Source: Planctomycetota bacterium (lineage in GTDB: Bacteria > Planctomycetota > UBA1135 > UBA2386). Taken from it: 64,000 nt of DNA. The notes under the pieces are model-generated. The model did no database searches. It was not told where the DNA came from and saw nothing but the letters and a program-made list of their open reading frames with translations. The stretch lies in assembly GCA_965223545.1 (NCBI GenBank), contig OZ245006.1, forward strand, positions 2,720,001 through 2,784,000, given 5' to 3'. Position 1 is the first letter of the stretch; every line of letters begins with the position of its first letter. This document shows positions 23,836 through 39,672 of the stretch, piece by piece. The position numbers were made by a program, and so were the translations under genes.

Positions 23836-24807
23836 ATGACGCATCGCCACCTCTCGCTCACCATCGCCCTCGCGTCGGTCGCGCTGGCCGCGTGCGCCTC
23901 GGGCCCCGCCGACCGGGGCGGGATCTACGACCCCGCCCTCGAGGAGACGGTCCGCGCCCAACGGGCGGCGATGGCCGAGGCGGAGGCCAAGCTCGGCGAC
24001 TTCAACATGGTGCTGCTGAACCTCGACAAGTCGATCGACAAGTTCGTCGAGGCCACCGCGCGCAACGACTTCCAGCGCGCGGATCGACTGGCGCACAGCC
24101 TCGAGGACTACCTGCGCAAGACCGTGACCAAGCACATCGACGCGCTGATCGTCACCGCCGACGACCGCACCGAGAACTCCGGGGCCAACCGGGCCCGCGC
24201 GGTCGGCGCGCTCGGCTTCTACGTGCCAGGCGAGGACGGCCCGGCGCGCGACGTGCTCAACCCGCTGCTCAACGCCGCCCGCGACGGCGACGACGCGGTG
24301 ATCACCAACGCGGTCTTCAGCCTGGGCATGCTCGGCGATCCCGACACGCCGATCGACGTGCTCGCCGGCATCCTCGAGGACCAGCAGCGACCGGCGAAGA
24401 TGCGCATCGGCGCGGCGTGGAGTCTGCTGCGCCTGCAGCGGAACCTGCTCGAACCACGCGCCGTCGCCCCGGTGTGGATGCGGCTGTTGACCCAAGCCGA
24501 ACACGATCCCGAGCCCTGGGTGATCATCCAGTCGCTGCGCGGCCTGGGCAAGCTGCGCAACAGCGCGCACGCCGAGATCCCGACCGACTATCTGACGCAT
24601 CCGACCCCGCTGGTCCGCCAGGCGGCGGCAATCGCGCTGGGCTACATGGGCAACAGCGAAGCGAGCGAGCCGCTCATCGCCCGCCTCGGCCCCGAGGAAT
24701 CCAACGCCAACGTGCGGCTGACGATCCGCAAGGCGCTGCAAGCCCTCGCCGGCGGCACCGACCGCGGCTACGACCAAAAAGAGTGGCGCCGCGTATTCGC
24801 GCAGTAA
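23836..24807 (+). CDS. HEAT-repeat lipoprotein
   Basis: Lipobox LAAC; HEAT-like repeats such as VRQAAAIALG. Confidence 0.8.
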   Translation: MTHRHLSLTIALASVALAACASGPADRGGIYDPALEETVRAQRAAMAEAEAKLGDFNMVLLNLDKSIDKFVEATARNDFQRADRLAHSLEDYLRKTVTKHIDALIVTADDRTENSGANRARAVGALGFYVPGEDGPARDVLNPLLNAARDGDDAVITNAVFSLGMLGDPDTPIDVLAGILEDQQRPAKMRIGAAWSLLRLQRNLLEPRAVAPVWMRLLTQAEHDPEPWVIIQSLRGLGKLRNSAHAEIPTDYLTHPTPLVRQAAAIALGYMGNSEASEPLIARLGPEESNANVRLTIRKALQALAGGTDRGYDQKEWRRVFAQ

Positions 24808-24894
24808 TGAACGTACGGAGCCAGGCTCCGATTCATCACCGGCCGCCGCTGCGGCGGCCGGTGATGAATCGGAGCCTGGCTCCGTACGTTCATT
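24806..24894. repeat. Perfect 89 bp palindrome (44 bp arms, 1 nt centre) made of two inverted REP-like units (REPIN-like)
   Basis: 24806-24849 is the exact revcomp of 24851-24894; each arm contains GTACGGAGCCAGGCTCCG. Confidence 0.92.
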
Positions 24895-35863: not shown

Positions 35864-37033
35864 ATGCAACAGCTCCTCGGCCTCGCCGCGTTGGCTTCGC
35901 TGGCGGCACCGCTCGCCGCGCAAGGCTTCAGCAACGCCGTCATCCGCAACAACGAGCCCTACTTCGTCACCGCGACCGCCACCAGTGCGGCCACCGGCCA
36001 AAACTACAACTGGGACCCGGTCAACCCGGGCGAGTACTCGCGGGGCACGCTCGCCGCACCCGTCGGCGTGCCGGCCAACACGTGGAGCTGGCGCATTCTT
36101 CCCCGCGAGATCAACTACCGATCCGGCAACCGGCAGGTCTCGGGCTTCGTCCACGACCTGCGCCTGTCGGCCGAGACCGCGACCAGCTGGACCGGGGTCT
36201 ACGAGCCGGAGGTGCAGCTGATGGCGACCGTCCCACGCCCGTCGGTCGCAGGCGCCCTCAACCCTGACTGGAACAAGGTGCTGGTGAGCATCGGCGAGAA
36301 CCCGGTCCCTCCGCTGGGCACGCAACAAGTGACGGTGACCCGCGCGCTCGCCAACCCGATCAACGTCCCCAGCGATCCCAGCAACCCGCAGGGCAGTGAT
36401 CACCTGGCCCTGGCGCTGAAGTTCCGCGGCGGGGAGAGCAAGTGGATCAACGGCGCCCAGGGCTTCGTCGGCTCCTGGATGGACGGCCCGACGCCGTCGA
36501 CGACAACCGGCTTCTACTACCCGACCAGCCGAGTGACCGCGCACAGCACCGATCCCCGCTTCGTGCTGTGGGCCACCTACATGGAGGCCGAGCCGACGAT
36601 CAACGTCTACTCGGACTGGGGTCAACGCCGCTTTCCGCCGCAACCGACCCCGCTGTTGGGACACTCGATCGGGACCTACTACTCCGACATCGCCACCGCC
36701 TCGGGCAACCTCGGCCTCAGCGTGCGCGCCGCCAACTACCCCGGCGGCTTCGCCGCCGTGTTGTTCAACTTCGGGCCCTGGATCCCGGTCGCGTTCCCGC
36801 TGTTCGGCCAGACCGTCGAGCTCAATGTGGCCGACCCCAACCTCGGCCTCTTCGGCGGCATCCCCGGCGTCGGCCTACTCCAGCTCGATCCCAACGGAGC
36901 CGCAGACGGCTTCTCGATCCCGATCCCGGCCAACGCCGCCTTCACCGGCACCTCGATGGGCTTCGAAGCCCTGGTCTTCGACCCCCTCCTCACCATCCAA
37001 GCCAGCACCGGCAGCGCCTTCGTACAAAACTGA
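35864..37033 (+). CDS. Secreted beta-rich protein with conserved C-terminal domain
   Basis: Signal peptide ending PLAA|Q; C-terminus FSIPIPANAAFTGTSMGFEALVFDP. Confidence 0.8.
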   Translation: MQQLLGLAALASLAAPLAAQGFSNAVIRNNEPYFVTATATSAATGQNYNWDPVNPGEYSRGTLAAPVGVPANTWSWRILPREINYRSGNRQVSGFVHDLRLSAETATSWTGVYEPEVQLMATVPRPSVAGALNPDWNKVLVSIGENPVPPLGTQQVTVTRALANPINVPSDPSNPQGSDHLALALKFRGGESKWINGAQGFVGSWMDGPTPSTTTGFYYPTSRVTAHSTDPRFVLWATYMEAEPTINVYSDWGQRRFPPQPTPLLGHSIGTYYSDIATASGNLGLSVRAANYPGGFAAVLFNFGPWIPVAFPLFGQTVELNVADPNLGLFGGIPGVGLLQLDPNGAADGFSIPIPANAAFTGTSMGFEALVFDPLLTIQASTGSAFVQN

Positions 37034-37047
37034 AGGTACGGAGCCAG

Positions 37048-37297
37048 TCCTGCCCCGGCAGATTTGTCGGCCCTTCAGGGCAGGAAACTAGCCGCTGAGG
37101 AAGGGGGAGGGGAACGTGTGAGGGGCCCGGCAGCTACGCCCCCAATAGCCACTGGAGCACGTTTGCCCCAGAGCCAGTCTGGGTCCGAGTTGGCCATCCT
37201 TCACTGGTGAGGGGCACGTCGCCGTGCCCACTCCCGCAGGTCAGATTCGTTTGATCGCCGCCTCGGGCCGGGCCCACCACAACAATGAGGATGAAGT
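37048..37297 (+). ncRNA. Candidate IS110 bridge RNA (left non-coding end)
   Basis: 250 nt upstream of the recombinase with hairpins 37048-37085, 37167-37183 and 37212-37229; location expected for IS110-group bridge RNAs; boundaries unknown. Confidence 0.6.
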
Positions 37298-38680
37298 ATG
37301 GCTGGGAAGAGCAGAACGAGGAAGGGCAAGAAGCCCGCAGCGGAAGTATTGCCAGTCGTGAAGCCCAACGCCGCCGGAATCGACATCGGCAGCCGCGAGC
37401 ACTGGGTGTGCGCAGCAGCACCCGACGGCAGTCGTCCGATCAAGCGATTCGGAACGACGACGCCCCAGCTAGAGGCGCTCGCGGACTGGCTGGAGGAGCT
37501 CGGAGTGCGATCCGTCGCGATGGAGAGCACCTATGTCTACTGGATTCCCGTCTACGAGCTACTCGAGTCGAGAGGCTTCGAGGTCATCCTCGCGAATGCC
37601 CGCGAGGTGAAGAACGTGCCGGGCCGCTCCAAGTCCGATGCCAGCGATTGCAGTTGGCTGCAGAAGCTACACACCTATGGCCTCATTCGCGCTTCGTTCC
37701 GGCCTCCGAAGGACATCTGTGCGTTGCGGACCCTGCAACGCCATGCCGCGTCTTTGATCGCGCAGCGCACGCGCCACACGCAGTTGATGCAGCGGTCACT
37801 GGATCAGATGAACGTGGCGATCCATCGCGCGGTAACGGACATCACCGGCAAGACCGGCCTCGCGATCATCCGCGCGATTCTCGCTGGTGAACGCGACCCT
37901 CGAGCGCTCGCCAGACTGCGTGATCCGCGCTGCAAGATCTCCGAGAAGGAGCTCGCGGATCACTTGCAAGGGACCTGGATCGAGGAGCACATCTTCACTC
38001 TCGCTTCGGGCTTGCGGATGCTCGAGCACACCGACCACGAGATCGAGTCGGTCGAGAAGCGATTGATGGCGATGATCGAGGACCTGCAACCGGAGGAAGC
38101 CAAGACGGCCGACGTCCCCGAGCATCCAGACCCCCGCAAGGAGAGGAGCATCCGAACGAAGGGCGGCCGGGAGCTTCGCGATGCCCTCTGCCGGCTCGTC
38201 GGGTGTGATCTCACGCGAATCGACGGTATCAGCCCGAGCACGGCCATGATCGTGCTCACCGAGGTCGGCTACGACCTCGAAGCTTTCCCGACCGAGAAGC
38301 ACTTCGTCTCCTGGCTACGCCTGTGCCCACGTCAAGCCGTCTCGGGTGGAAAGCGCATCAAGAAGCACCGCAACAACATCGCGGTCAGCAGGATCGCCAC
38401 GGTCCTCCGGATGGCCGCCCTGTCCCTCCAACGTACTCAGACAGCTCTCGGCGCACACTTCCGCAAGATCGCCCGCGCGAAGGACGGCAACGTCGCCATC
38501 TTTGCCATCGCCCGCAAACTGGCCCTGCTCATCTACCGCATGCTGAAGTTCGGCCAGGACTACGTAGACGAAGGCGCCAAGGCCTACGAGGAGCGCTTCA
38601 CCCAGCGACGCATCGTCGGACTCCGACAGAACGCTAAATCCCTCGGGTACAAGCTCATACCGATCGCCGAGGCTGGGTGA
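37298..38680 (+). CDS. IS110-family DEDD recombinase/transposase
   Basis: GIDIG, MESTYVYW, KSDASDC (DEDD RuvC-like); IDGISP HhH; C-terminal AVSGGK serine motif. Confidence 0.95.
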   Translation: MAGKSRTRKGKKPAAEVLPVVKPNAAGIDIGSREHWVCAAAPDGSRPIKRFGTTTPQLEALADWLEELGVRSVAMESTYVYWIPVYELLESRGFEVILANAREVKNVPGRSKSDASDCSWLQKLHTYGLIRASFRPPKDICALRTLQRHAASLIAQRTRHTQLMQRSLDQMNVAIHRAVTDITGKTGLAIIRAILAGERDPRALARLRDPRCKISEKELADHLQGTWIEEHIFTLASGLRMLEHTDHEIESVEKRLMAMIEDLQPEEAKTADVPEHPDPRKERSIRTKGGRELRDALCRLVGCDLTRIDGISPSTAMIVLTEVGYDLEAFPTEKHFVSWLRLCPRQAVSGGKRIKKHRNNIAVSRIATVLRMAALSLQRTQTALGAHFRKIARAKDGNVAIFAIARKLALLIYRMLKFGQDYVDEGAKAYEERFTQRRIVGLRQNAKSLGYKLIPIAEAG

Positions 38681-38703
38681 GTTTCAGGTCAGGCTCCGTA
38701 CCG

Positions 38704-39672
38704 TCAGCGACCGCCGTCTGTCTCGGTGGGCGGCGCCTCCGAGGTCGCGCGGAGCGCGGCCCCGACGAACGCGAGCGAACGCGGCAGCTGCCGCTGCAGA
38801 CTGCCGCTGCCCCAGGAGTGCCCGCCTCCGTCGACCAGCACGAACTCGTGCGCGACACCTCGTTCGGTCAACACCTCGGCGAGTTCCTGATTGGCGGGGG
38901 TGAAGCCGTAGCGATCGGCGGTGCCGGCGTCGAAGTACATGCGCAGCGGCGCCAGCGCCTCGGACGCGAGATCGCGAGCCAGCGCCAGCGGCATCTCGGC
39001 GGCCCACTTCGCCGGCTCGATCGGATCGCCGAAGACCTCGTCCAACCCGCTGCTCTGGATCAAGCGCTGCACCATGCGCCCGCGGCGTCCCTCGAGCGCG
39101 GAGGGATCCGCCGGCATGATGGCAGACGAATGCGCGGCGACGATGCCGAATACCCCGGGATGCCGCATGGCGATCTTGAGCGCGCCAAAGCCCCCCATGC
39201 TCACCCCCATGATCGCGCGCCGGCGCGCCGCGGGATCGACCGCGTAATGCTCCGCCAAGAACCGCGGCAAGGCCTCGACGACGAGCTTCTCCTGGTCGCC
39301 GTCGGGGCCACCGTCGATGTAGAGCGGCCGACGGCCGACGCCGAGTGAAACGAAGATGACCGCGGGGATCGCGTCGTCCGCGCGCGCCGCGTCGAGCGCC
39401 AGCCCGCCGCCCTCGGCGTGGAACTTCCGATGGCTCTCGTTGCGGCCGTGCAGCCAGACGACCCAGGGGTAGCGCGTGCCCTCGGCCGCAGCCTCGGCAT
39501 AGTCGACCGGCAGGTAGACCAGGGCCCGCGCGGTGCCGCCCTCGGGAATGGGCAGCTCGACCTCTTGCAAGGTGAAGTGCGTCAGCTCGGGACCGCTCGC
39601 CCCGTCGCCGCGCTGACCGACGAGACTGGCTGCAAGACCGGCGACGACCGCCGCGAAACCGAACATCCGCAT
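38704..39672 (-). CDS. Secreted alpha/beta-hydrolase esterase
   Basis: YPWVVWLHG, GVSMGG nucleophile elbow, FDAGTAD, GGGHSW. Confidence 0.9.
   Translation of the reverse strand: MRMFGFAAVVAGLAASLVGQRGDGASGPELTHFTLQEVELPIPEGGTARALVYLPVDYAEAAAEGTRYPWVVWLHGRNESHRKFHAEGGGLALDAARADDAIPAVIFVSLGVGRRPLYIDGGPDGDQEKLVVEALPRFLAEHYAVDPAARRRAIMGVSMGGFGALKIAMRHPGVFGIVAAHSSAIMPADPSALEGRRGRMVQRLIQSSGLDEVFGDPIEPAKWAAEMPLALARDLASEALAPLRMYFDAGTADRYGFTPANQELAEVLTERGVAHEFVLVDGGGHSWGSGSLQRQLPRSLAFVGAALRATSEAPPTETDGGR

Follow-up and report, generated by a model that had tools for sequence, protein, structure and literature searches.

The insertion described here, in a 64,000-nt stretch of DNA from a Planctomycetota bacterium (hereafter the window), is very probably an IS110-group bridge-recombinase element of the AG-core clade with recombinases of about 450 aa, to which ISPpu9 belongs. 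It has recently expanded in its host genome (G000). By comparing sequences we established its ends, its AG core, its REP-like target and the covariation of its predicted guides with DNA (Table 1). A first-pass annotation had called an IS110 element here, and its IS110 ORF was confirmed: the product scores 247.9 bits against NF033542 (cut-off 140) and has, as in the IS110 family, a DEDD RuvC domain and a Tnp20 domain with the SG serine, residues D29, E76, D114, D117 and S349 being placed by alignment to IS621. At least 7,790 homologues were retrieved at E ≤ 1e-60; phage and plasmid collections held relatives of less than 60% identity only, none named ISPpu9 among the matches listed.

Table 1. 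Features of the element and of its target repeat (positions in the window)
Feature	Position	Strand	Remarks
Left half of REP-like palindrome	37030..37047	+	Ends in left target GAGCC plus core AG (37046-47)
IS110 element	37048..38692	+	1645 bp, one AG core counted
Left end ("A-box"-like)	37046..37088	+	43 bp, core to GAAAC
Predicted bridge RNA core	37124..37274	+	Outer stem enclosing target-binding arm and donor-binding arm
Inferred top-strand (right-target) guide	37147..37153	+	AGC + bulged CA + CU; complementary to GCT + AG core
Bottom-strand (left-target) guide	37171..37177	+	GAGCCAG; 115/140 nt match left flank
Left-donor guide	37237..37244	+	CAGGTCAG; identical to true right end plus core
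DEDD recombinase	37298..38680	+	460 aa; PF01548 and PF02371 over cut-off
Right end ("B-box"-like)	38677..38692	+	16 bp, GTGAGTTTCAGGTCAG
Right half of REP	38693..38707	+	GCTCCGTACCGTCAG; overlaps stop codon of convergent esterase ORF
Unoccupied inverted REP doublet	24806..24894	.	44-bp arms; each unit GGAGCC-A-GGCTCC

Ends, core and genomic copies

We retrieved 23 full copies of the element from contig C1 of the host genome, at least 99.2% identical and representing six sequence variants, and compared the flanks of all of them. The palindrome is split at the AG core in 22 of the 23, with repeat sequence on either side of each, so the annotated targeting of REPs by an IS110 was supported; the 23rd is a duplication product that has kept its REP half on the left. 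The left flank of all 23 copies ends in GAGCCAG and GCTCC starts the right flank of 22. GTCAG is present beyond 38687 in 23/23 copies. It is also retained where the right end borders on non-REP DNA, namely in the copy at C1:4826231 and in a fragment near C1:988223, and for these reasons we set the last base before the core at 38690, with the core AG at 38691-92 (CAG at 38690-92), 10-12 nt after the recombinase stop. Among the relatives compared, AG is present without exception (left flanks, 32/32; right ends, 36/36), the right end reads GTT[TA]C-N5-AG regardless of the target and the left end follows the consensus AG-YNNNGCCNCCG...GAAAC. The left end of the element holds an 8-bp inverted repeat (37048-55/37078-85). 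As in the IS110 family, terminal inverted repeats are absent and a short core is common to both ends; the layout is that of the IS110 group, with 250 bp upstream of the ORF and 10 bp plus the core downstream, and the element has no long sub-terminal inverted repeat, only an asymmetric 5-bp GTTTC/GAAAC pair.

The element had been annotated as 37048-38687, with a 3-nt CAG core and a right end 7 nt after the stop, inserted in the 6-nt AGGTCA loop of a REP-like hairpin. The 11-bp arms GGTACGGAGCC and GGCTCCGTACC are indeed bracketed by two convergent stop codons, at 37031-33 and at 38704-06, the first of which ends the upstream ORF and falls within the left REP half, and the arm does recur in the 24806-24894 palindrome (GTACGGAGCC, four times in the window vs 0.09 expected). 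Deleting 37048-38687 also yields the sequence as written, a tidy hairpin with CAG at both junctions, but this is not the pre-insertion site: three sites in the genome have the AGGTCA-loop form, against 94 free GAGCCAGGCTC sites, and the true empty centre, which the element splits, is GGAGCC-A-GGCTCC with a 1-nt loop. The AG at 38686-87, a second AG internal to the right end, had been mistaken for the end, which was thereby set 5 nt short. The GTCAG kept at the two non-REP junctions, the sequence of the donor guide and the right ends of relatives with other targets speak against the AGGTCA-loop version as well; we accord it next to no probability, and as the main pathway it is already refuted, although occasional excision in the wrong register, leaving scars, may follow this scheme. 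The three AGGTCA-loop sites are probably such excision scars; use of the wrong AG accounts for these three five-base scars and for a 173-bp duplication. The circle junction proposed earlier, GAGTTT-CAG-TCCTGC, was wrong; GTC belongs to the element before the AG core, and the predicted junction becomes TTTCAGGTC-AG-TCCTG. We searched the assembly with three patterns for the old and corrected junctions, yielding 0 matches; contigs from 4 of the 24 listed runs, which drop rare forms, contained no joints of either the circle or the empty allele.

The target repeat and a Y1 gene flanked by it

Free GGAGCC-A-GGCTCC occurs in 85 copies in the genome, with 0.33 expected under a 5th-order Markov model. 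We counted 154 REP centres (6-7 in shuffles), 118 of them outside proxy ORFs and 36 inside, with 39 neighbours less than 150 bp apart; a proxy stop lay no more than 60 nt away from 108 of the 154, compared with 9% for random positions. Like REPs, the repeat is therefore abundant, palindromic, mostly extragenic and often arranged in inverted doublets. Its tag is GTAC, conserved at 97-100%, and not GT(A/G)G or CGTC, so that it works like a REP without being a member of the GTAG/CGTC family.

Inverted copies of the repeat flank a RAYT-like Y1-HTH gene (C1:3914532) whose product reaches 63.5 bits against NF047646, below the cut-off of 80. This gene resembles the TIRYT / TnpA-REP subclass 2.1 (PMC3733652, PMC6006769) in being a Y1 HuH gene with a Y---NP motif and a C-terminal HTH, and in its flanking inverted repeats, which constitute a genomic family as well; it differs in that the repeats are GTAC-tagged hairpins present in more than 100 copies. 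PMC6006769 reports that REP-like sequences were not found near subclass 2.1 genes, and neither paper mentions "GTAC" in its main text. For 12 of the 14 Y1 matches in the genome, no REP arm was found within about 2.5 kb. A single REP arm was seen at +2.6 kb for the L002 Y1 gene only.

The repeats could instead be debris of the element (footprints or MITEs) and not a host REP family driven by a RAYT, and two observations fit this: the exact repeat is nearly private to the host genome (122 matches, vs no more than 8 per genome in 90 others of the family), and scars exist. We judge it very improbable, given that repeat and element have only the 7-nt target in common, that inverted copies flank the Y1-HTH gene and variant GTAC repeats its paralogue, and that inverted flanking repeats, many of them GTAC-tagged, occur at most of 30 family homologue loci, the majority of these loci coming from genomes with no match to the IS protein.

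An independent acquisition of REP targeting, as annotated, seems plausible from sequence comparison, because only the target of the window's element, of 29 target pairs in the group sharing at least 50% identity, can form a centred hairpin of 7 bp (the runner-up reaches 5 and most reach 1-3).

Predicted bridge RNA and its guides

In the alignment of the predicted bridge RNA, 95% of cells are paired and two-sided changes occur in 13 of 30 pairs, a level reached in 0 of 500 shuffles; RNAalifold concurs on most helices. Computationally, the element thus has the structured RNA with target and donor guides of the IS110 family. This alignment-based structure took the place of a fold computed from the left end alone, which was not better than shuffles (z -1.0) and had both guides hidden within stems. 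An Rfam scan of 36900-38900 returned one chance match and none at the gathering score, and a scan of 36950-37350 for sigma-70 promoters and terminators returned no match.

To compare guides with DNA across relatives, we located left flanks without using the guide and took boundaries from guide-independent motifs. Matches of the left-target guide far exceeded those in permutations (mean 48.8, max 73, against the observed count in Table 1); 10 of 28 pairs were imperfect, 4 or 5 of them badly, probably reflecting mis-located ends. The left-donor guide matched at 62/65 nt (permutation mean 32.7, max 48), with 11 of 13 pairs perfect. Position 37178 is likely the handshake base, with 25/33 covarying at the target arm vs 14.7 expected. 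For the right-target guide, whose bulge and core pairing we infer, position RT+3 was complementary in 21/32 (8.7 expected, P=0.0005), a P value that, like the others, overstates significance because the relatives are not independent. Positions +2 and +4 were marginal and +1 fell short of significance; with matches at 0-1 positions in several relatives, this guide is weak. In a column scan the sole right-target signal (z 5.6; 2.9 for the runner-up) lay upstream (5') of the left-target guide, and there was none 3' of it, where IS621 has this guide, nor were there signals in other registers at offsets -2 to +3. The bottom-strand guide thus does not precede the top-strand guide as in IS621 and ISEc21; this order has been described from few members, and we did not treat its reversal as excluding the IS110 group. 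Neither a right-donor guide nor a donor-arm handshake showed convincing covariation among relatives. A right-donor match at RD+7 (z 5.2) was discarded, the column being nearly invariant (28 observed vs 23.5 expected).

On these predictions, the left-end RNA would bind the DEDD/Ser recombinase, and recombination between the two AG cores would give a circle with the junction predicted above. The donor arm would pair with the right end over 7-8 nt. The target arm would make two contacts, one of 7 nt to the GAGCC-AG bottom strand and one of about 3 nt, together with the core, to the AG-GCT top strand, and strand exchange at AG would then leave the element at the middle of the GTAC-tagged palindrome of the host. 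The repeat being mostly extragenic and near stop codons, such insertions are tolerated.

Such a guide may alone be too short, with the recombinase reading the REP hairpin too, as reported for ISPpu10 (10.64898/2026.03.19.712850). The genome has 1,936 GAGCCAG sites and 126 GAGCCAGGCT sites, and among the latter 22 of 110 REP-like ones are occupied vs 0 of 16 others; moreover, relatives tolerate very loose right targets, yet 22 of 23 are exact in the host genome. However, the expectation for the 16 is about 3 occupied sites, so the deficit is small, selection against insertions in genes would explain it equally, and the targets of most relatives are not hairpins. We regard a contribution of the hairpin as possible but rather doubtful.

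Further support for targeting by the guides comes from a sister element in a genome of another genus (G032; 78% aa identity), with guides GTGCCAG and UGU. The changed guides match that host's own REP variant: GTGCCAGGCAC has 118 sites in G032 and 3 in G000, whose REP pattern in turn has 0 matches in G032.

Comparison with known elements and significance

The closest characterised element is ISPpu9 of Pseudomonas putida KT2440, so the kind is already known, and ISPpu9 is the right comparator, not IS621 as cited in the annotation. According to its description (PMC12288879), ISPpu9 uses AG as its recombination site, gives rise to circles and targets REPs, and its 43-bp A box contains an inverted repeat. 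Shared with our element, on that account, are membership of the IS110 group, a long upstream non-coding region, AG at both ends, the 43-bp left box with its inverted repeat and 16-bp right box, a REP and REP-doublet target, and slippage to other AGs when ends are misread; the long transposase completes the features of the clade. The proteins share the motifs ES.[GY]VYWIP, KSD..D and GERDP, and the kinship rests on these motifs, read by eye in a supplement listing, and on the shared anatomy. The host phylum differs, as does the REP type, here GTAC-tagged with insertion at the palindrome centre. ISAzo22 and ISCARN20 (ISfinder names) belong by motifs to the same long-transposase clade and adjoin ISPpu9 in the identity matrix (PMC11208160, PMC11187229); our literature search found no paper naming them.

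IS621 and ISCro4 (PMC11208160, PMC11208158) share the DEDD plus Ser site, a two-loop RNA in the left end, a 2-nt core and a handshake base, and IS621 also targets REPs. They differ in length (328-341 aa vs 460 aa, with weak similarity, E 2e-10) and core (CT vs AG); in IS621 the bottom-strand guide comes first, here second, and the right-donor guide of IS621 had no counterpart in our covariation scan. Viewed from the other strand, the element has a CT core and loops arranged as in IS621, and the clade therefore resembles an IS621-type machine with RNA and gene reversed relative to the recombination site. With the IS1111 group (ISEc11, ISPa11; PMC11187229) the element shares a top-strand guide 5' of the bottom-strand guide and, with ISPa11, a REP target. 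IS1111 elements, however, have a downstream RNA, proteins of 330-350 aa and long sub-terminal inverted repeats (7-17 bp), none of which is found here, the RNA being upstream.

Since REP-targeting IS110s are already known (IS621, ISPpu9, ISPpu10, ISPa11 and others; PMC1525189), the headline finding is ordinary. Less expected are the apparent IS1111-type guide order (top-strand guide 5') in an upstream RNA and the lack of a detectable right-donor guide, from which it would follow that the donor is read by RNA on one arm and by protein or structure on the other. We tentatively propose, with a little under even confidence, that the AG-core clade (ISPpu9/ISAzo22-like) is a third bridge-RNA architecture, in which an upstream RNA carries strand-flipped guides of IS1111 type, the bottom-strand target guide being long and the top-strand one vestigial, and lacks a right-donor guide, with this one-armed donor reading, and that one branch in the host family repeatedly adapts both target guides to a GTAC-tagged REP family spread by an HTH-tailed Y1 transposase of a type thought to lack REPs.

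The analysis provides a guide map at base resolution for the ISPpu9-type clade, directly testable in existing ISPpu9 assays. If true, this map would give bridge-editing tools an AG-core scaffold and a natural example of donor recognition through one arm. A further by-product is a family of GTAC-tagged repeats linked to a Y1 gene with an HTH tail. The two genomes together illustrate natural re-programming, the two target guides having changed along with the host REP.

Element copies, ends and core

The IS110 element of the window is real, REP-targeting and recently expanded, and belongs with the ISPpu9 kind. Its ORF scores above cut-off for both Pfam domains of IS110 and for the NCBIfam model of the family, is enclosed by convergent stop codons and lies between two palindrome halves, whose arm recurs from 24806 as the first-pass annotation had noted. 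The genome (8.1 Mb, two contigs) carries 23 full copies at ≥99.2% identity plus one internally deleted fragment, and read depth is about 725 on the element versus 30-34 on its flanks (run X4, possibly the source sample). A second variant (six copies) shows 10 differences, one of them a 1-nt insertion in the hairpin of the left end; its guides are identical despite these changes.

The flank comparison across all copies that the first-pass annotation had proposed found the same ends and the same REP, confirming insertion into a REP-like palindrome, but at other ends than it had set. The left flank reads GAGCCAG in 23/23 copies; beyond the earlier right end (38687), now seen to be 5 nt short, GTCAG continues in 23/23, followed by the REP half GCTCC in 22/23. 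GTCAG is also kept at two right ends that adjoin non-REP DNA, one of them in the 173-bp duplication described below. The free repeat GGAGCC-A-GGCTCC occurs 85 times in the genome (0.33 expected), against three occurrences of the AGGTCA-loop form once taken as the empty site. Because all copies keep GTCAG, even at non-REP junctions, and the free repeat mostly lacks the AGGTCA loop, comparison of the copies sets the element at 37048-38692, with AG rather than CAG as its core.

The three odd AGGTCA-loop sites hold exactly the last five bases of the element. Such REPs are probably scars of mis-registered excision by recombination at the inner AG; mutants of ISPpu9 are reported in PMC12288879 to slip to other AGs. 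In one locus (L198), the element and 173 bp of flank are duplicated in tandem via the right end and an upstream genomic AG, a natural left-donor-only event.

Features in the window and on G000:C1, the contig of the window's own genome that carries IS copies (L-handles, fetched loci)
Feature	Location	Observation
Recurring palindrome arm	window 24806-24894	same arm as at the element
389-aa secreted-looking protein	window 35864-37033 (+)	no hit in Pfam; its Atlas neighbours belong to unnamed clusters, mainly from Planctomycetota
REP left half	window 37030-37047	
IS110 element, from copy ends	window 37048-38692	
Predicted bridge RNA core	window 37124-37274	
Predicted right-target guide	window 37147-37153	
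Predicted left-target guide	window 37171-37177	
Predicted left-donor guide	window 37237-37244	
IS110 ORF	window 37298-38680	460 aa
Inner AG	window 38686-87	
REP right half	window 38693-38707	
Second-variant copies	G000:C1:517070, 1718279, 2160819, 3391627, 3917190, 7727686	
IS fragment	G000:C1:988112-988240	ORF start joined to right end; adjoins non-REP DNA
REP doublet (L199)	G000:C1:1714943-1718279	both units occupied by same-orientation IS copies, one per main variant
HTH-tailed Y1 gene (L197)	G000:C1:1729786-1730915	
RAYT-like Y1-HTH gene (L196)	G000:C1:3912823-3917190	IS->gene<-IS layout, an IS110 in each flanking REP
Tandem duplication (L198)	G000:C1:4826231-4829693	
REPs with last right-end bases at centre	G000:C1:6469830, 6715175, 7558360; L238:985-1010	

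The REP repeat and Y1-HTH genes

After in-silico removal of IS copies and allowing ≤2 mismatches, we counted 154 REP centres in G000 (6-7 in two shuffles) with the consensus TGAAcGTACGGAGCC-A-GGCTCCgtttCATCAC; 39 neighbours were <150 bp apart. A proxy stop codon lay ≤60 nt away for 108/154 centres, versus 9% of random positions, and 36/154 fell inside proxy ORFs. Exact copies of the repeat are almost confined to G000: among the 90 family genomes, 7 contain them, with 1-8 matches each.

The gene at C1:3914532 encodes a Y1 protein of 333 aa whose C-terminal region is HTH-like, and it is flanked by inverted REP copies, both split by IS110. Its paralogue (45%) is flanked by variant GTAC repeats. 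Homologues were found in 20/90 family genomes; upstream-downstream inverted alignment exceeded the best of 30 shuffles in 28/30 homologue loci, a few only slightly, and GTAC was visible in about half of the 30. HTH-tailed Y1 genes of the host family (L197; L201-L229) have inverted-repeat flanks, many GTAC-tagged; subclass 2.1 Y1 genes are reported without REP-like flanks in PMC6006769. Twelve further Y1_Tnp matches on the contig (L003-L010 and four more), of near-equal score, do not adjoin these REPs and are probably a separate multi-copy element. Related REP/Y1 and REP-targeting IS literature includes PMC6006769, PMC5581495, PMC3733652 and PMC1525189.

Predicted bridge RNA guides

From 75 genome and 80 metagenome loci, we retained 50 rows (window included) at ≥50% identity covering the N-terminus, 48 with an RNA-profile match; boundaries were set by end motifs independent of the guides. 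Positions 37171-77 matched the left flank at 115/140 variable nt (28 distinct pairs, 18 perfect; permutation mean 48.8, max 73), and 37238-44 matched the right end at 62/65 nt (13 pairs, 11 perfect; permutation mean 32.7). The proposed RNA structure (36 sequences) paired 95% of cells (slid controls 32-56%), with two-sided changes in 13/30 pairs (0/500 shuffles as high); kinship of the relatives inflates these guide and structure figures. Seven relatives (L109, L096, L115, L093, L094, L014, L108) lie beside the end of a further copy or beside a donor-like site. Tandem or donor-directed insertion therefore seems frequent in the AG-core clade.

One clear signal for the right target emerged from an unbiased column scan; it lies on the 5' side of the left-target guide and reaches z 5.6, with the runner-up at 2.9. 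The position-by-position test used 32 distinct pairs from 43 loci, after removal of 5 that were donor-like, 4 that lack the motif, and others that were short or duplicated. Complementarity was strongest at +3, with 21 pairs against 8.7 expected (P 0.0005). It was marginal at +2 (13 pairs) and +4 (11 pairs), with P about 0.04, and did not reach significance at +1 (9 pairs); none of five other registers yielded a signal. Directly after the left-target guide comes a base that is identical to the donor's first base in 25/33 (14.7 expected). A handshake base would behave in this way if the site were read by the machine on the other strand, where AG is CT. The scan of relatives found neither a covarying right-donor guide nor a covarying donor-arm handshake.

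Relation to ISPpu9 and guide re-programming

ISPpu9 is the closest characterised element, sharing the REP target, AG core and 43-bp and 16-bp boxes with the window's IS; it forms circles, right-box bases adjoining AG are essential, and its guides are not mapped in the sections consulted (PMC12288879). IS1111 elements are described with the top-strand guide first and IS110 elements with the opposite order (PMC11187229). The literature searched, mostly outside subscription papers, patents and preprint supplements, held no description of flipped AG-core guides; since bridge RNAs are predicted for 85.7% of ISfinder IS110s (PMC11208160), a model for this clade may already exist in that paper's tables or figures. 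Half-match recombination is treated in 10.64898/2026.08.31.748434, and related work in PMC11208158, 10.64898/2026.03.19.712850, 10.64898/2026.08.14.744561, 10.1101/2025.10.25.684509, 10.1101/2025.05.14.653916 and PMC13626964.

A sister IS, 78% identical, in G032, a family genome of another genus, has the guides GTGCCAG and UGU. G032 has 118 GTGCCAGGCAC sites (control 4) and 0 matches to the G000 repeat pattern; its repeat also flanks its own Y1 gene. Of five right-end motifs there, three continue into the REP half, one of these in scar-like form, and two do not. Because targets of more distant relatives are non-palindromic, REP targeting in this branch probably arose separately from that of ISPpu9. 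The guide map and the tracking of REPs by guides are the parts worth experiment.
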